The notes under the pieces: generated by a model
Told to the model about the DNA's origin: nothing
Database searches by the model: none
The model's input: only the letters and a program-made list of their open reading frames with translations
Source of the DNA: a virus
Length of the DNA: 8,265 bases
Strand: one strand, 5' to 3'
IMG/VR virus record: IMGVR_UViG_3300044695_004155
Span: 1 to 8,265 of that record
Translations under genes and position numbers: made by a program
Shown here: positions 2,254-8,265 of the stretch, one piece after another
Position numbering within the stretch: the stretch's first letter is position 1
Layout of the letters: each line of letters begins with the position of its first letter

Positions 2254-2640
2254 TTAGTCCCACCAAATTCGGTATAGACCTGGTTCTACTTCATCAAGTT
2301 CATCCGCCTTCAAAGAAGCTTTACTTGGTTTTGTATTCGTCTTTACATAAAGACAAACACTATATTCACGACCAAGTTGAATCTTTGCATCTGCTGGTAA
2401 TTTGTCAATCAATTCAGCAGTGAATTCATTATAACCATCAGGAAGAGCTTGTTTCATAATGTTCATTGCATCTTTCTTACTGAACATTGTTGTGTCTTTC
2501 CACATCATGTTATTTCCATCATATTCCTTGGCAAACTTCTTTGGATCTTTACCAAAATTTACTTCCTTTACTGCCTCATTGATAGATTCAGTCAAAAGAC
2601 CAGCAAGTTTCATCATTCGTTGTTTATTCAGTTCCATCAT
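2254..2640 (-). CDS. hypothetical protein (start ambiguous) containing an MMKLAGLLTE leader
   Basis: The track ORF 2254..2649 begins at a TTG. ATG codons occur at 2640, 2637, 2616 and 2613. Starting at 2616 gives MMKLAGLLTESINE..., which matches the N-termini of the two downstream paralogous leaders (ATGATGAAACT vs ATGATAAAACT). There is no clear Shine-Dalgarno for any candidate start. Confidence 0.65.
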   Translation of the reverse strand: MMELNKQRMMKLAGLLTESINEAVKEVNFGKDPKKFAKEYDGNNMMWKDTTMFSKKDAMNIMKQALPDGYNEFTAELIDKLPADAKIQLGREYSVCLYVKTNTKPSKASLKADELDEVEPGLYRIWWD

Positions 2641-2896: not shown

Positions 2897-3035
2897 CCGA
2901 ACTTCCCATGTATTTACCTTGTGGTGGGCAATCTGTTATTTAGTATAGAACTTTACATATTCAGTATATGTAGCGAATTCAACTGCAATCGTTATCGGGT
3001 TGGAGTATTTTTTACCAAAATGTAGAATTTCTTTT

Positions 3036-4034
3036 TCATCCATTCTCTTGTTCGGAGTTTTCCTTTGCCTTTTGGATAATGAACGGAATCATCTTATCCG
3101 GAGTGATTTTATTCTTACGACCTTCTTGATAAATACGAATCAAAATATCACGGGCAATAGACCCCATCTTTCTTTTTGCGTTATGTATCTCGGAATCTAT
3201 TACAGATTTAGCATCCATCCCTCCAAAAGTCAGTCTCATATTCCATAACTTACTTTCATATTCTTTCCAACCAGATTCTATGTAATCCTTATATGTTCCA
3301 TACTTCCCACGATCATCCGGTTCCATCTGTAACATTCTGCTGTTGAAATCTTTCTCAGCTGTTTGATTTGACATGAAGATAGTATTTAGTTCTTCCTTTG
3401 ATATACCGACGACTTGTGCGATATAAACCAACCTATCTAATCTTTCAGGATTAGGTGGCATGGAAACATATGGACTTTCATTCGGGTCAATTGGTTGTCT
3501 CAAAGAATCCGCTATTTCTTTTGTCACAAGTTCTCCGTCTCTACCCAATTGAAACTTCTTTTCATTTCTGAATAGAAAACATTGGATGTTTGCTTTTAGG
3601 CAGGCATCCATTACAGCCGTCAATTGAGTCATATTACTCCTGTATACAAAGGCATTTAGGAACAAGTCCACACGTTTGATGTAATTCTTTGCATTAGGAA
3701 TTGTTGGTTCATTGGAAAACAAACGGTCTTCGTATTCCGTACCTTGTGGTCCCATCTGCCAGTAATCTATCGCACCACCCTTATATCGTTGTGATAACTT
3801 TCTCCCGTCCAACTCAAGACGGCAATCATATGATTTACCATAACCACCCCACTTTTGGCGAGCGGTTGAAAGGTAGTATTGTTTATTACCACCAAACTTT
3901 GATATATCTGCACCACTCACTATGCTCAACTCAAACTTGTTTTGCTCTATTATCTTCTTAGCAGCTTGGGGTGATGTGAAGTGCCAGACTATATCTGATA
4001 GTGCCTCTGTTAATATGTGTTTTAGTTTTATCAT
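3036..4034 (-). CDS. 332-aa protein with MIKLKHILTE leader and a possible N-terminal ADP-ribosyltransferase-like domain
   Basis: It is a long uninterrupted ORF. The residues are VWH18FTS, QY53Y54LST, GGY65G and TE100YE102DRLF. Their order and spacing recall the His/Tyr/Tyr/Glu pattern of diphtheria-toxin/PARP-type ARTs. I do not recognise the C-terminal 200 aa. The first 8 codons lie inside the 59-bp repeat. Confidence 0.8.
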   Translation of the reverse strand: MIKLKHILTEALSDIVWHFTSPQAAKKIIEQNKFELSIVSGADISKFGGNKQYYLSTARQKWGGYGKSYDCRLELDGRKLSQRYKGGAIDYWQMGPQGTEYEDRLFSNEPTIPNAKNYIKRVDLFLNAFVYRSNMTQLTAVMDACLKANIQCFLFRNEKKFQLGRDGELVTKEIADSLRQPIDPNESPYVSMPPNPERLDRLVYIAQVVGISKEELNTIFMSNQTAEKDFNSRMLQMEPDDRGKYGTYKDYIESGWKEYESKLWNMRLTFGGMDAKSVIDSEIHNAKRKMGSIARDILIRIYQEGRKNKITPDKMIPFIIQKAKENSEQENG

Positions 4035-4069
4035 TACCTATAAATATGAAACTACGGGGAATATCGTCC
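4011..4069. repeat. 59-bp direct repeat, copy A (54/59 identical to 4783-4841)
   Basis: Aligned by hand without gaps. The mismatches are at 4019, 4023, 4053, 4059 and 4063. The copy covers the first 8 codons of the 332-aa gene plus 35 nt upstream. Confidence 0.9.
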
Positions 4070-4071
4070 GT

Positions 4072-4806
4072 CTATAAGTCATCATCGTCCGGTTCAATGT
4101 AGTTGGACAATCTGTTAGGCAATCTGTCCATAATGTTCTCCCAAAATAGTTCTGAACTTACCGCTATGAATACAGGTTTGGAATACTTTTTTCCAAAATG
4201 AAGTATTTCGTTTTCTTTTCCGTTACCACTGGTGAATGAAAACAAATAATTCATTACCTTTTGATTGAAAAAATACTCATCATTTTGTTCTGAAATAAGT
4301 ATACCATGGTCTCCAAATCTTTTAGATACATTTATATTAGACGTCCAACTTTGAACATCTCGGTGTGGTTTATACGATATTGGTTTATCATATCTATAAA
4401 ATACTTCTTTTCCGATTTTTAATTTAGTATAATCATTATAGTCAGATTTTTCTCTTAGAGGAGAAATAATATTCTTCGAAATATCTTGTAAACCTCGATA
4501 GACTTCTGTACCATTCGGGGTTTCTGGTTTAAATATAGATGGAAATTTAGTTTTTGCATTTTTCAACAAGTCTTTATTTTTATACAAATTGTTTGAAATA
4601 GTTCCATCAGGAGTGCGTACCCATTGTAATATGTATGACAATATCTGTTTTTCTATTTTCGTATTCTTTTCAGAACCAGTTTTTCCCTGTAACTTAACGA
4701 GTTTTTTAAAGAAATCATCTTGACTTATATCACCAAACACAATATCACCAAACGCCTTTTTCGGGTCTGTGTCTGTTTCAGATAATATGTCTTTGAGTTT
4801 TATCAT
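4072..4806 (-). CDS. candidate mono-ADP-ribosyltransferase of the R-S-E type (244 aa) with MIKLKDILSE leader
   Basis: The motifs are EVYR104G, QS153WT155S156N and GKE198NE200ILHF. They occur in the order and approximate spacing of ART regions 1-3 (aromatic-Arg, S-T-S, E-x-E followed by hydrophobics). The tail is acidic (EPDDDDL). The CDS call is firm but the product call rests on motifs only. Confidence 0.8.
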   Translation of the reverse strand: MIKLKDILSETDTDPKKAFGDIVFGDISQDDFFKKLVKLQGKTGSEKNTKIEKQILSYILQWVRTPDGTISNNLYKNKDLLKNAKTKFPSIFKPETPNGTEVYRGLQDISKNIISPLREKSDYNDYTKLKIGKEVFYRYDKPISYKPHRDVQSWTSNINVSKRFGDHGILISEQNDEYFFNQKVMNYLFSFTSGNGKENEILHFGKKYSKPVFIAVSSELFWENIMDRLPNRLSNYIEPDDDDL

Positions 4807-4841
4807 TACCTATAAATATGAAACGACGGGTAATTTCGTCC
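4783..4841. repeat. 59-bp direct repeat, copy B
   Basis: It is offset exactly 772 bp from copy A. It covers the first 8 codons of the 244-aa gene plus the last 10 codons and the stop of the 69-aa ORF. Confidence 0.9.
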
Positions 4842-5019
4842 AACCATCCATTTCAAAGATTTCCATAAACATCCCATAGTAATATACGAAACACGTACCA
4901 CCTGTGATAAAAACGTTGGAAATAAATATCTCATCTCCACGTCTAACAATAATCTTTTTATCCTTCAGATGTGTTGGTTGTGTTATCTTCGGATCTACCT
5001 CGTTCTCTAATCGCAACAT
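4810..5019 (-). CDS. hypothetical protein (69 aa)
   Basis: The ATG at 5017-5019 is preceded by AAGGGGGT with a 5-nt spacing. The stop TAG lies inside the 59-bp repeat, 3 nt before the next ATG. I recognise no family. Confidence 0.65.
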   Translation of the reverse strand: MLRLENEVDPKITQPTHLKDKKIIVRRGDEIFISNVFITGGTCFVYYYGMFMEIFEMDGWTKLPVVSYL

Positions 5020-5158
5020 TCGTTACCCCCTTTGTATGTTTTGGTTCATACGGGCAGTGAAGACATCCCGACCCGCAACAAAATGAACGGCAAAGGTGGT
5101 ACTCTTCTGTGAATACCACCTTCCCGTTTTCGTTTATGTAATAATCTTCCTCTTTCAT
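4958..5158 (-). CDS. DUF5522-like cysteine-rich small protein (66 aa)
   Basis: The segment YYINENGKVVFTEEYHLCRSFCCGSGCLHCPY matches my recollection of the DUF5522 signature (F-T-E-x-Y-H-L-x-R-G-x-C-C-G-x-G-C-x-H-C-P-Y). The low-complexity C-terminal 20 aa overlap the next gene by 62 nt. Confidence 0.65.
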   Translation of the reverse strand: MKEEDYYINENGKVVFTEEYHLCRSFCCGSGCLHCPYEPKHTKGVTNVAIRERGRSEDNTTNTSEG

Positions 5159-5397: not shown

Positions 5398-6216
5398 TTA
5401 CTTGATTTCACAAGAATATTTCCAAATGTAGCCACCACCTTGTTTATATTTCCCAATACAACACCCATATACACTATCCCTACCAACTTTCATAACTTCA
5501 GATGCCTCCTGAATGCTCTTGAATGTTTGTAAGAATTTACCATCTTTACTAAACATATCTATTGGTTTCATCTTACTTACTCCCATTTTTTTACGAACTT
5601 CACTCGGAATTACTTTACCTCTATTCTTTGCAGATATTTTTGCTCTCGTTTCAGGAGAATTTGGTTTTCCAAGATTGTGGGGTATAATTTTACCAGAAGC
5701 ATACAACTCTTTCATCTTTTTTGAATGTTCTGGTCTTGGTTTTCCTCTTCTATTTTCCGCATACATAAGATATTTTTCCGATGATTTCATAGATAAGGAC
5801 ATATTCTTTTTATACCCATCTGACCATTGTGTGCCTTTTCTACTTTTACTCATACGTGAACGTGTTTCCGTCGAATGTGACTTACCGTAAAACGGATTAT
5901 TTACACCACTCGCCATTTTACTCATTTTTTCTTTCCACTCATCTGTATGTTCTGCGCCAGTTCCTTTATTGTGCATATTGTAAAACGTTTCATTGTTACC
6001 TGCATCATAATAATTCAACCAGTATTCTTCCCGTTCTACCATTTGTTCAAATGATGAACATTCCTCAATAACTTCTTTCTTGAAGTTTTCTTTGCCGTAT
6101 TTACGGATTGCAAGCTTGAGTAAATGACCAGAACCAAGATAGTTTGGATTGTTTCTACTATCTCTACCGATATATTGCTTCCCGTTCACCAAATTTGTGG
6201 TCTTGTAGATAATCAT
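5398..6216 (-). CDS. GIY-YIG homing endonuclease with NUMOD3 repeats and a C-terminal helix-turn-helix (I-TevI / Seg-like)
   Basis: The N-terminal MIIYKTTNLVNGKQYIGRD...YWLNYY...N is a GIY-YIG catalytic domain. There are at least four S/T-x-E-x-R-x-K-[MI]-S type NUMOD3 repeats (HSTETRSRMSKSRKG, RPEHSKKMKE, SPETRAKISAKNRG, PSEVRKKMGVSK). The C-terminal FKSIQEASEVMKVGRDSVYGCCIGK...GYIWKY is an I-TevI-like DNA-binding module. GGGAGA lies 6 nt upstream of the ATG. Confidence 0.92.
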   Translation of the reverse strand: MIIYKTTNLVNGKQYIGRDSRNNPNYLGSGHLLKLAIRKYGKENFKKEVIEECSSFEQMVEREEYWLNYYDAGNNETFYNMHNKGTGAEHTDEWKEKMSKMASGVNNPFYGKSHSTETRSRMSKSRKGTQWSDGYKKNMSLSMKSSEKYLMYAENRRGKPRPEHSKKMKELYASGKIIPHNLGKPNSPETRAKISAKNRGKVIPSEVRKKMGVSKMKPIDMFSKDGKFLQTFKSIQEASEVMKVGRDSVYGCCIGKYKQGGGYIWKYSCEIK

Positions 6217-6357: not shown

Positions 6358-8214
6358 TCATACTATATCACATTTTCCGCCCGCGCAGGCCGCTTCTTGT
6401 GAGTGTTCCGTGTTATCATCCAACTCTACTATTTTTGACAAATCAACATCTTTTAGAGTTTCCATCAACTGATGATACTTTTCTTCCGTAATATCTTCGA
6501 ATGGGCTCTGGATGTAAGTATGGTCAGAGAATGGTAATACGGAAACTCCATTATATGAGTCACGATTTGTCCATAGCCATTGACCAACAGCTGGCCATTC
6601 ATTTTCACGAATACTTACGGTAGCCGAAATGTTGTGTGTGTTCATTCCATTCTTGTGACCTGGCTTTATCCAATTTTGGTTGAACCACTTTACGCGTTCA
6701 AGAAGTTGAAGTGGAGATTCTGTTCGCATAATCGCGTGGTCTGGTGCCTTTTGTGGGACACCGATAACTGCGGTATCGTGTGGACGGAAGTATTCATCTT
6801 CTACCAATTCAGGGTGGTTGATTGCAAGGTGAGTATAGATTGCCTCGTTCTTACCAACACGAACACGACGGAGGTAATAGTCATTGTGCCAAGCGTGAAT
6901 ACCAGATGAGCATCCTAATGTAAGAGATGATGTTCCAGCTGGCTTGATTGTTGTAATACGAGCAGCTTTATTGATACCGAGAATTCCAGCAACTCTTTCG
7001 TTCTCTTCCTTTGCAACTTTTGTTGCTGACTTTACATCCAACTTCTGAACAACACCTGAGCCAATACCAGTCATACCAACTCCAAGAAGACCGTCTTTCT
7101 CTGTTGTTCTTTGCCAGATTGGACGAAGATAGTGGAAGTCCGTATAACTTGCTTGAAGTGTTCCGATGAATGTTGCCGCACGAACTCGGTCTTCTAAATC
7201 CTGTTGGTCTACTACGTCTGAAACGTTTACTTCACAAAGATTACAGAATTGGAATGGACGTAGACCGATTTCACAACAAGGGTTTGTTCCCCAATCTTTA
7301 TCGTTTGAGAAGTAAATTCCAGGTTCACCTGCGTTTGAAAGTTCAATCTTCTTCCAAAGTCCCTTGAAGAATTCTTCTGTTACTTTACTACGAAGTAATA
7401 CCGCAGAGTTATTTGCCCGTCCACGTTGAGGATTCAATTCCCACCATGCACCAAATTTACACGAAATCATTTCATCATCATCGGCGGAGAATAGTGAGAT
7501 AAGAGCAGCACGACGAATACCACCAGCAAGAACTGCATCTGCAATATGACAAACCATATCGTGAACTTCGATAGGTGACAACTTGTCTCCATCTTTCTTT
7601 AGGTCAAGAATAGCACGAAGTTTCTCAACACAAATACGAAGTGGTTCTGAGCCAGGAGCTTTACCACCTGATGTGATAAGACGGGCACCCTTTGGACGGA
7701 TGTCTGAATAATCAAAACGAAGTGATGAACCGCTTGTGAAGTATGACTTTACAAGGGCTTTGATTGCGTCTGCCCAACCTTCGATTGAGTCTGACACAAG
7801 GAATCGTCTTTCACGGTCTGCCTTCGGTTTACGAATTTCAGGAAGTTTCTCGACGTGATGTTTCTGAACAGAATATCCAACACCTGTTCCACCGAGAAGA
7901 AGGAACATCACTTCACCAAAAGCACGCCAGTCATCAATAGGAAGATATGCACAGTTGTAAATACGATTCGGTGAAATTTCAATTGGCTTACCACCGAATT
8001 GAAGTGAACGCATTGAAGGAAGAACCTTCTTATCATAGACAAACTTATAGACATTTTCAATCTCGTCTTTTAGTTGTGGGTATTTCTTTTGGTGCATTTC
8101 CTTGTTTCGTGTCACCAACTCTTCCCAAGTTTCCCGACGATTGAGTTCAGGTATGAAACGAGAATACTTCATATAAACCGTAATATCCGAAAGGATTCGG
8201 TTGCTAATATCCAT
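6358..8214 (-). CDS. rtpR: adenosylcobalamin-dependent ribonucleoside-triphosphate reductase, monomeric class II (RTPR type)
   Basis: This is a 618-aa ORF with GGAG 6 nt upstream of the ATG. Blocks match my recollection of Lactobacillus leichmannii RTPR: DYSDIRPKGA...GGKAPGSEPL, VLAGGIRRAALISLFSADDDEM, GRANNSAV, NAGEPGIYF, the thiyl-radical loop GTNPCCEIGL...FCNLCEV, TTIKPAGTSS, and a C-terminal redox tail CAGGKCDIV (compare CEGGACPIK). There is no ATP cone. Confidence 0.93.
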   Translation of the reverse strand: MDISNRILSDITVYMKYSRFIPELNRRETWEELVTRNKEMHQKKYPQLKDEIENVYKFVYDKKVLPSMRSLQFGGKPIEISPNRIYNCAYLPIDDWRAFGEVMFLLLGGTGVGYSVQKHHVEKLPEIRKPKADRERRFLVSDSIEGWADAIKALVKSYFTSGSSLRFDYSDIRPKGARLITSGGKAPGSEPLRICVEKLRAILDLKKDGDKLSPIEVHDMVCHIADAVLAGGIRRAALISLFSADDDEMISCKFGAWWELNPQRGRANNSAVLLRSKVTEEFFKGLWKKIELSNAGEPGIYFSNDKDWGTNPCCEIGLRPFQFCNLCEVNVSDVVDQQDLEDRVRAATFIGTLQASYTDFHYLRPIWQRTTEKDGLLGVGMTGIGSGVVQKLDVKSATKVAKEENERVAGILGINKAARITTIKPAGTSSLTLGCSSGIHAWHNDYYLRRVRVGKNEAIYTHLAINHPELVEDEYFRPHDTAVIGVPQKAPDHAIMRTESPLQLLERVKWFNQNWIKPGHKNGMNTHNISATVSIRENEWPAVGQWLWTNRDSYNGVSVLPFSDHTYIQSPFEDITEEKYHQLMETLKDVDLSKIVELDDNTEHSQEAACAGGKCDIV

Positions 8215-8263: not shown

Positions 8264-8265
8264 AG

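Follow-up and report, generated by a model that had tools for sequence, protein, structure and literature searches.

Introduction

Detailed knowledge of the effector proteins that are injected into the host at time zero, among them counter-defence proteins and host-takeover enzymes, is limited to T4 and a few model phages. The internal proteins of T4 have the capsid-targeting sequence (CTS) as their sole common part (PMC3012670); the first 10 residues of IPIII are enough for packaging, and within the CTS residues 4 and 7 serve targeting and residues 8 and 10 cleavage (PMC9026906). In the ADP-ribosyltransferase (ART) Alt of the same phage the propeptide MELITE/LFDE is cut at ITE-6 (PMC5694885). 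ModB, another T4 ART, is an R-S-EXE enzyme whose residue R73 is needed for activity (PMC10468400). A further group, the polyvalent proteins, are thought to be packaged and delivered effectors (PMC5512222). Here we describe a gene of an uncultured T4-like phage, the IMG/VR virus record IMGVR_UViG_3300044695_004155, analysed in a window of 8,265 nucleotides, by which we mean the whole stretch from position 1 to position 8,265 of that record. According to the list of open reading frames (ORFs) and their translations, the gene occupies positions 4072..4806 of the minus strand, starts with ATG and encodes 244 residues, in which a 10-residue leader is followed by an acidic linker bearing an FG..FG motif, by N-terminal helices and by an alpha/beta core of catalytic type. 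On balance, we read its product as the precursor of a small mono-ART of the R-S-E type, a distant relative of ModA and ModB that would be loaded into the head and injected by means of its leader.

Sequence motifs and extent of the family

A preliminary description, made from the sequence alone, had pointed to three motifs in the order found in R-S-E enzymes, and all residues and codons that it cited are found where it placed them. The first is the aromatic-Arg-Gly triplet Y103-R104-G105 (4492..4500, with the codons at 4498-4500, 4495-4497 and 4492-4494, respectively), and the second is the STS-like segment Q152-S153-W154-T155 (4342..4353; S153 at 4348-4350 and T155 at 4342-4344, with S156 following at 4339-4341). 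The third is the E-x-E motif within E198-N-E200-I-L-H-F-G (4192..4215; E198 at 4213-4215 and E200 at 4207-4209). R104 is separated from S153 by 49 residues, and S153 from E198 and E200 by 45 and 47 residues, respectively. In the N-terminal helices there is a further motif, E46-K-N-T49-x-x-E52 ... W62 (4621..4671). All of these segments are encoded, like the gene as a whole, on the minus strand.

Conservation was evaluated over 185 homologous domains. Position 103 is aromatic and R104 present in 100% of them, G105 in 99%; in the second motif Q152 is found in 94% and S153 in 99.5%, position 154 being always aromatic and position 155 always T or S. E198 is present in 97% (three of the 185 domains have Q instead, so that E or Q is found in 99%) and E200 in 99%, followed by [IV][LI] and then by H203 (87%) and G205 (88%). 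Outside the classical motifs the conserved positions include E46 (94%), T49 (89%), E52 (96%) and W62 (97%) as well as Y145, P147 and F164. When a 98-sequence alignment is considered, with a mean column identity of 16%, only P89, R104, S153 and E200 are invariant. Conservation of the R, S and E residues among homologues, on which the proposal of an ART had been made to depend, is thus observed. The proposed S-T-S-like strand stands as far as S153 and the T or S at position 155 are concerned; its third member, S156, is variable (S in 33% and T in 25% of the domains). The FTSGNG stretch (residues 191-196), which had been singled out as a feature preceding E-x-E, falls in a gapped, variable region of the alignment and is not conserved; the segment F191-T-S-G-N-G-K197 (4216..4236) would nevertheless occupy the position of the ADP-ribosylating turn-turn (ARTT) loop.

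The motif triple taken alone is weak evidence, since its loose form ([FYW]R ... S.[ST] ... [EQ].E, with gaps of 25-75 residues) arises in 4.8% of composition-preserving shuffles of the protein. The strict form, [FYW]RG ... S.[ST] ... [EQ].E[ILV][ILVM], arises in 0.015% of them, and among 65 real proteins of at least 150 residues bearing the same leader it is found in only two, both members of the family. It is because the motif is conserved in the 185 homologous domains that we regard it as above chance.

A word-indexed search retrieved 59 homologues down to 29% identity, all of them metagenomic hypothetical proteins, and a profile search of 1.84 billion cluster representatives retrieved at least 742 clusters at 50% identity (E ≤ 1e-3). 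Among 50,697 GenBank phage records, tblastn found no relative of the protein and megablast with the whole window no match; a search of 185,579 cellular species genomes with a 9-sequence alignment, by a method that depends on conserved peptide words, found no relatives either. No Pfam ART family reached or approached its gathering score when 51 and 98 members were scanned, and PF26816, the family of the Mod enzymes, was not among the families matched by these members (E ≤ 1-5). The commonest sub-threshold Pfam match was DRAT (PF07357), in 2 of 98 members with a best E of 0.005, and ARPP-2 was matched weakly by three members (E 0.07). Matches to VHS and Tox-REase-5 were rejected, being far under threshold and non-recurring. 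The contigs with family members encode genes of the gp32, UvsX, RNase H and gp41 types, and on these grounds we assign them to T4-like myoviruses. Judged by these searches, the family is large, unannotated and restricted to phages.

Comparison with ModA, ModB and other ADP-ribosyltransferases

For comparison with the Mod enzymes, ModA and ModB from the T4 record were aligned with 17 further Mod-family proteins, all of them PF26816, and the family under study was represented by the alignment of the 185 domains. Comparison of the two profiles with hhalign gives a probability of 74-77%, a P value of about 2e-5 and a score of 38.5-39, as against 13.1 +/- 2.0 (maximum 19.3) for 60 column-shuffled Mod profiles and 11.5 for the reversed profile. 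In an independent test, the hidden Markov model (HMM) of the Mod family scores 18 members above 10 bits, the best at 21.3 bits (E 1.5e-6 for 185 sequences), while shuffled decoys reach at most 3.0 bits and reversed decoys at most 5.8 bits. Under relaxed settings the alignment runs colinearly over about 165 positions from the N-terminal helices to the E-x-E strand. It pairs E46/T49/E52/L56/W62 with ModB E30/T33/E36/L40/W41, Y103-R104-G105 with Y72-R73-G74, Q152-S153-W154-T155 with D98-S99-F100-T101, position 161 (A in 79% of members, S in the present one) and F164 with A107 and F110, and E198-N-E200 with E171-Q-E173. Within the Mod family, E36, L40, R73, G74, S99, A107 and F110 do not vary, and conservation is at least 90% at E171 and E173; all nine of these residues are matched by the predominant residue of the family under study. 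Since no member reaches the PF26816 model, the link to the Mod enzymes is to be understood as homology at the level of the superfamily and not as membership of PF26816.

The relation to canonical enzymes was assessed with a cluster of proteins that carry the same leader in front of a PF03496 domain (see below). The family scores 27.9 against this cluster (P 0.0014), with the three motifs colinear, and ModA/B score 29.1 (P 0.0013); the family is therefore about as close to the canonical enzymes as are ModA/B, and is itself closest to ModA/B. Neither T4 Alt nor two ART-PolyVal domains gave a significant result in single-sequence profile comparisons. The preliminary description had seen no similarity to Alt, and the profile comparison agrees with it; the kinship with ARTs that it proposed takes the form of a reproducible remote homology to ModA/ModB, which are closer relatives than Alt. 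Taken together, the sequence comparisons make membership of the ART superfamily probable.

Beyond being the best profile match and, like the present protein, being encoded by T4-type myoviruses, ModA and ModB resemble it in size (about 200-207 residues, compared with about 234 for the putative mature protein) and in the succession of helices with E-x-x-T-x-x-E ... L ... W, a Y-R-G strand, an S-[FW]-[TS] strand with an A-x-x-F helix, and a strand beginning at E-x-E. They differ in that the Mod enzymes are leaderless and synthesised after infection, in the spacing from R to S (49 residues here, with an inserted hairpin, vs. 26) and from S to E (47 vs. 74), in the section C-terminal of E-x-E, which is unlike, and in the response of Foldseek, which sees a ModB-like model as a C3-like ART and the present model not. 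The likeness to Alt is of another kind: like Alt, the present protein would be an R-S-E-type enzyme behind a short N-terminal propeptide ending in hydrophobic-x-Glu and would be delivered at time zero. Alt is, on the other hand, a protein of 682 residues with its PF03496-type domain near the C-terminus, its leader sequence is unrelated in detail, and its packaging has been demonstrated by experiment.

The leader peptide and its cargo

Codons 1-10 (4777..4806, minus strand) encode the leader MIKLKDILSE, a putative propeptide for capsid targeting and cleavage; positions 4, 7 and 8 are hydrophobic and position 10 is Glu. Across 117 N-terminal family members the leader is conserved far better than the body of the protein, M1, I2, K3, L4, K5, I7, L8 and E10 being nearly invariant even where overall identity falls to about 30%. 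A scan of IMG/VR for DNA encoding M-I-K-L-K-x-I-L-x-E gave at least 132 matches at no fewer than 119 loci. At least 124 of the matches head ORFs of 50 residues or more, nearly all within 25 codons of the preceding stop, and these ORFs fall into at least 74 clusters without mutual likeness past the leader; only two ORFs among the matches listed belong to the family studied here. Ile2 is encoded by ATA in 64, ATT in 50 and ATC in 7 of the matches listed, and L4 by six different codons; the DNA upstream of the leader is not conserved between lineages. Because codons vary synonymously and the upstream DNA is unconserved across lineages, selection appears to act on the leader peptide itself. As a separate observation, Ile7 is, unlike Ile2, encoded by ATA in 106 of 121 IMG/VR loci among the matches listed.

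Several of the cargo proteins can be assigned by Pfam. A cluster of 358-413 residues combines the same leader with a canonical PF03496 domain (L050 6214-, L016, L018, L026 and L110); the ADPrib_exo_Tox match reaches 27.3 bits as against a threshold of 23.4, with the motifs VFRG ... FTSTS ... ESELTLP. As judged from its leader and domain, this cluster is a direct analogue of Alt in this phage clade. The other assigned cargoes are an M23 peptidase with a tail lysozyme (Peptidase_M23 with Phage_lysozyme2), a T4-type lysozyme (Phage_lysozyme), a Zeta-toxin kinase (Zeta_toxin), an RNase T-like exonuclease (RNase_T) and a NUDIX hydrolase (NUDIX), found at L070, L103, L014, L030 and L116. These domain types are those of ejected and polyvalent effectors (PMC5512222). 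Many further leader-tagged clusters are without annotation.

The leaders of T4 (MKTYQEFIAE in IPII/III, MELITELFDE in Alt and MKTFKEF...ITE in IPI) invite comparison with MIKLKDILSE. As in IPI, IPII and IPIII, there is a tag of 10 residues (MKTYQEFIAE vs. MIKLKDILSE) that is hydrophobic at 4, 7 and 8 and has Glu at 10; this tag is attached to unrelated, fast-evolving cargo encoded in hyperplastic regions close to tRNA genes and to homing endonucleases (PMC3012670, PMC9026906), and cargo is swapped at a conserved leader. The amino-acid sequence is a different one, and so is the clade, namely aquatic and environmental T4-like phages whose nearest cultured representative is the Microcystis phage Mel-JY01; moreover the repertoire of leader cargo seen so far, with its 74 or more clusters, is far larger here. 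In Mel-JY01, genes starting with MIKLKSLLQE, MIKLKSLLKE and MIKLMSLVTE come directly after the ribonucleotide reductase (RNR) gene; leader-bearing genes of this phage lie at 60276-60926 and 62056-62718. The prohead protease of this phage is 33.5% identical to T4 gp21 (E 4e-27), and its T4-like capsid protein has I-S-E/A at the site of L-T-E/A in T4 gp23.

One could also suppose that the protein is a Mod-like ART that is not packaged but acts within the infected cell as ModA and ModB do, the decapeptide being an element of translation initiation or regulation or a tag for degradation or localisation. Its closest relatives ModA/ModB are indeed early intracellular enzymes without a CTS (PMC10468400), and in the window a conserved upstream DNA block and CATATTTATAG go with the leader and could form a regulatory cassette with it. 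This explanation seems improbable to us: the synonymous variation of the leader codons and the unconserved upstream DNA in other lineages point to selection on the peptide, conservation of the leader is strongest at positions 4, 7, 8 and 10, which are important in T4 (PMC9026906), the range of cargo (lysozymes, M23 peptidase, Zeta toxin, ART, nuclease) fits ejected and polyvalent effectors (PMC5512222), and a gp21-type protease is encoded by the cultured relative Mel-JY01. By analogy with T4, a capsid-targeting function of the leader is rather likely. The suggestion of the preliminary description that a CTS-like leader serves an Alt-like logic of delivery is accordingly backed by comparative data, in that the tag is found on at least 74 unrelated clusters including a PF03496 enzyme and in a T4-like layout.

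At the other end of the protein, residues 230-244 (4072-4116, minus strand) form an acidic tail, ...NYIEPDDDDL, which most homologues lack. The Y-I-E within it resembles a gp21-type site, and by analogy with Alt (LTE-619) a C-terminal processing would be conceivable.

Copies of the domain in polyvalent proteins

Copies of the domain without leader are found in two large proteins. P0128 (1632 residues) contains, in this order, ART-PolyVal, GNAT, DUF3140 and, at 1122-1317, the domain of the family; P0146 (859 residues) contains ART-PolyVal, the domain at 258-452, DUF5661 and an SprT-like domain. P0146 is adjoined by a protein of 1693 residues with AAA_34/Helicase_C_4 (L005 1715-9381), an arrangement typical of delivered anti-restriction modules. 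In the large proteins the profile match starts at about position 5 at the earliest and nearly always at 13-17 or later, from which we conclude that most or all of the leader is missing from them. Such a context, with leaderless domains in proteins of 859-1632 residues next to ART-PolyVal, GNAT, SprT-like and DUF3140/DUF5661 domains, is that of the polyvalent effectors described for phages and conjugative elements by Iyer et al. 2017 (PMC5512222), and it puts the domain in the company of effectors believed to be delivered together with the DNA. The present protein differs from them as a stand-alone gene with its own leader, and the domain of its family matches no Pfam model, those associated with polyvalent proteins included.

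Predicted structure

The AlphaFold2 model of the protein, built on a 51-sequence alignment, has a predicted local distance difference test (pLDDT) value of 91.3 and a predicted template modelling (pTM) score of 0.86. It begins with 4-5 N-terminal helices, followed by strand 101-106 with R104, a helix, a hairpin at 126-143, strand 151-155 with S153, helix 158-164, strand 168-173, helix 182-193 and a loop at 194-199; E200 starts strand 200-204, after which come strand 212-217 and a helix. At positions aligned with ModB, its secondary structure agrees with that of a ModB-like model in 63% of cases and in 67% within the core, while shifted registers give 21-39% in the core. The differences between the two models are localised in the hairpin insertion and in the section following E-x-E. 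The matches of a fold search in BFVD include two viral proteins without a name (E 1e-5 and 1e-3; template modelling (TM) score 0.32-0.43), three proteins of Achromobacter phage Motura and, at rank 8 with E 0.32, a protein annotated as ADP-ribosyltransferase exoenzyme, the only match with an ART annotation and, like the DRAT matches, a weak corroboration.

Several results weigh against the reading of the protein as a packaged ART. The preliminary description had expected structure prediction to give an ART fold, and this expectation was not borne out: Foldseek retrieved no ART from the PDB with the model (best E 0.5, TM about 0.1). This negative is meaningful, because by the same procedure the model of a protein 95% identical to ModB (pLDDT 89.5) matched 94 PDB chains at E ≤ 1e-3, all of them ARTs of the C3, VIP2, iota, CDTa, Certhrax, Vis or Plx2a type. 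T4 ModA, ModB and Alt are likewise not among the 50 best matches in BFVD. The E-x-E strand is followed by a single strand and a helix in the model but by two long strands in ModB, and the hairpin 126-143 between the R and S strands is extra. In searches of Pfam, PHROGs, NCBIfam and PDB sequences nothing significant was found with the protein, with its profiles or with about 150 single members. The hhalign probability is under the usually required 90-95%, and the high-confidence alignment with the Mod family spans the R and S motifs, E-x-E being added only under relaxed settings. The presence of a second ART domain in the same polypeptide, as in P0128 and P0146, is a mild objection, being somewhat unexpected. 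As regards delivery, the gp21-type protease gene has been seen in the related Mel-JY01, the 11.4 kb contig of the window stopping short of the head genes.

From the model, the protein would be either a strongly remodelled ART or not an ART; the agreement in secondary structure with the ModB-like model and the localised nature of the differences speak for remodelling. The second possibility would leave it a packaged effector with some other activity or a new fold, for instance a hydrolase or nuclease, in which the conserved Arg, Ser, Glu and His serve a different chemistry, its likeness to ModA/ModB being local and convergent. The missing PDB match of a confident model, set against the 94 ART chains of the ModB control, would fit such an explanation, as would the failure of all curated ART models to match, the 87% conservation of H203, which is outside the classical R-S-E residues, and the occurrence of the domain beside a distinct ART-PolyVal domain in P0128 and in P0146. 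We nonetheless judge it unlikely, since the similarity to the Mod family is far above the shuffled and reversed nulls in two independent tests and is colinear over about 165 positions with the nine Mod-conserved residues matched, the secondary structure is in register with the ModB-like model, and the flanks of all three motifs are typical of R-S-E enzymes.

Proposed function

In the reading that we favour, that of a head-loaded Mod-like ART, the leader MIKLKDILSE would act like the T4 CTS and dock the protein to the prohead's scaffolding core, where a gp21-type prohead protease would cut after Glu10. The mature enzyme of about 234 residues would be retained in the head and ejected into the host with the DNA, and there it would bind NAD+ via R104, S153 and the E198-x-E200 strand and transfer ADP-ribose to one or more host proteins. 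Within the R-S-E clade, an E-x-E motif with a first Glu marks the protein transferases that are specific for arginine. As the motif here is E-x-E rather than Q-x-E, the acceptor would most probably be an arginine side chain, by analogy with Alt and ModA acting on RNA polymerase. The variable loop before E-x-E may set the target specificity, and the host target may, as with Alt and Mod, be a component of the machinery for transcription or translation.

An ART scaffold could also serve another reaction, such as NAD+ glycohydrolysis, RNAylation with NAD-capped RNA, or modification of nucleic acids or small molecules. That the structure departs from the protein-targeting C3-like toxins and that the target-recognition loop is highly variable among homologues would accord with such a use, and ModB, the best profile match, RNAylates proteins (PMC10468400). 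We hold this to be more doubtful still than the explanations without packaging or without an ART fold: the first Glu of E-x-E, which in this clade is generally taken as the arginine-specific signature, is present in 97% of members.

Cassette exchange at the locus

The gene next to the one described above, an ORF of 332 residues on the minus strand (3036..4034), starts with the leader MIKLKHILTE, followed by a body unrelated to the 244-residue protein, and is thus a second leader-tagged cargo. It was considered as a paralogue and ruled out as such, the similarity detected by BLASTP being confined to the leader with no likeness past it. The two genes share a direct repeat of 64 nt whose copies are 89% identical: copy 1 (4778..4841) covers 35 nt upstream of the 244-codon gene and the first 29 nt of its leader and holds CATATTTATAG at 4810-4820, and copy 2 (4006..4069) lies before and extends into the 332-codon gene. 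The repeat is likely to be a recombination substrate for the swapping of cargo. On the minus strand, CATATTTATAG is found at 4810-4820, 4038-4048, 2669-2679 and 894-904, each time upstream of a gene start, i.e., in three exact copies and one with a single mismatch, as against 0.27 expected. Boxes like ATATTTATA precede many of the leader genes in the IMG/VR loci at a variable distance. Read on the opposite strand the motif is TATAAATA, the consensus of T4 late promoters; a T4 late promoter in the upstream block was nevertheless rejected, since TATAAATA has the wrong strand for it and the element stops 3 nt short of the ATG. The motif may be a promoter of this lineage or have some other role.

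Traces of a second gene of the family were detected by tblastn and with the family HMM (E 5.6e-10) at 2936..3043 on the minus strand. They consist of a 3' remnant of the P0038 type, 35 codons and a stop, whose translation, MDEKEILHFGKKYSNPITIAVEFATYTEYVKFYTK, ending at the stop, agrees in every residue with the C-terminus of P0038, a member of the family; the remnant overlaps the stop of the 332-codon ORF in a different frame. At the DNA level, 2914-3044 matches the 3' end of the gene that is intact in L139/L140/L141 with 96% identity. At the syntenic site, related contigs have DUF5522, an ORF of 69 residues, ART-A (P0038, 225 residues), ART-B (221-222 residues, 53% identical to the protein described here), an optional NUMOD3 endonuclease, and ORFs of 75 and 120 residues. 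As these relatives keep an intact gene here, most of ART-A appears to have been replaced in this phage, and the 332-codon gene with its own leader block now stands between the 244-codon gene and the ART-A remnant. The ORF of 120 residues has its counterpart in the window at 2254..2616 on the minus strand, where the ORF list gives a TTG-initiated ORF of 131 residues; read from M12, as in the 120-residue product called in the relatives, it starts with the diverged leader MMKLAGLLTE, and CATATTTATAG is upstream at 2669-2679. From its sequence it is probably a 120-codon gene and the third tagged gene of the window, which has two, possibly three, leader genes in all.

Read from these sequence traces, the locus is a hot spot for the exchange of leader-tagged cargo through recombination in the leader and the upstream block. 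It resembles in this respect the polymorphic internal-protein loci of the T-even phages, which are likewise situated beside tRNA genes and homing endonucleases.

Gene neighbourhood

Nearly all genes of the window are on the minus strand. At one end, a class II (B12-type) RNR is encoded at 6358-8214 on the minus strand, 69% identical to the RNR of Microcystis phage Mel-JY01; an assignment of this 618-residue ORF as NrdD was dropped, the protein being of the class II, B12-type. Leader-tagged genes come after the RNR both in Mel-JY01 and in the window. Next are a GIY-YIG/NUMOD3 homing endonuclease (5398-6216), an ORF of 58 residues, and a DUF5522 protein (4958-5158), followed by the 244-codon and 332-codon genes. 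Several small ORFs separate the latter from an HNH endonuclease (353-868), and tRNA-Phe and tRNA-Met are at 21-175. With its flanking GIY-YIG/NUMOD3 and HNH endonucleases and the tRNA-Met/tRNA-Phe genes, the locus recalls the T4 ipI/tRNA/segB region. NUMOD3 endonucleases are found at other positions of the same region in relatives.

The N-terminal domain of the 332-residue protein (about residues 8-170, with the motifs VWHxT and YxxS[TV]AR) has homologues in 36 phage records, often in several copies, including Lu11, SCTP-2 and phages of Vibrio, Dickeya and Alishewanella; Mel-JY01 has three leader-bearing paralogues. The sites L133 5354-6004, 6001-6183 and 7134-7796 group with these homologues. 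The domain has no match in Pfam or the PDB, and a search of IMG/VR with the whole protein gave identical copies only. Its H-x-T ... Y pattern faintly resembles ARTs of the H-Y-E type.

Significance

Since Alt, the Mod enzymes and the principle of capsid targeting are all known, the locus does not represent a new kind of system. What looks new is an unannotated, widespread family that would combine a Mod-like core with an Alt-like delivery and has a structurally aberrant appearance, and environmental T4-like phages also appear to have a distinct leader that labels a highly diverse set of injected proteins. It is tempting to go further, and we do so tentatively, at somewhat less than an even chance: MIKLKxILxE may be the CTS of aquatic T4-like phages that form a large and for the most part uncultured clade, an address label that lists their injected repertoire of dozens of unrelated enzyme families, most of them unannotated, and the protein described here may belong to a structurally aberrant branch of ARTs (at least 742 clusters) that links ModA/ModB to the polyvalent effectors, perhaps with new targets.

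The locus shows clearly how cassettes are exchanged at a conserved leader, and leader and cargo would form a compact natural module for the packaging of foreign proteins, as has been done with the T4 CTS. If the proposed function holds, an unannotated family of at least 742 clusters would join the ART superfamily. The group that bears the tag includes relatives of a phage infecting bloom-forming Microcystis, and for many environmental T4-like phages a tag of 10 residues would, if the reading is true, pick out the injected proteins straight from metagenomic sequence.

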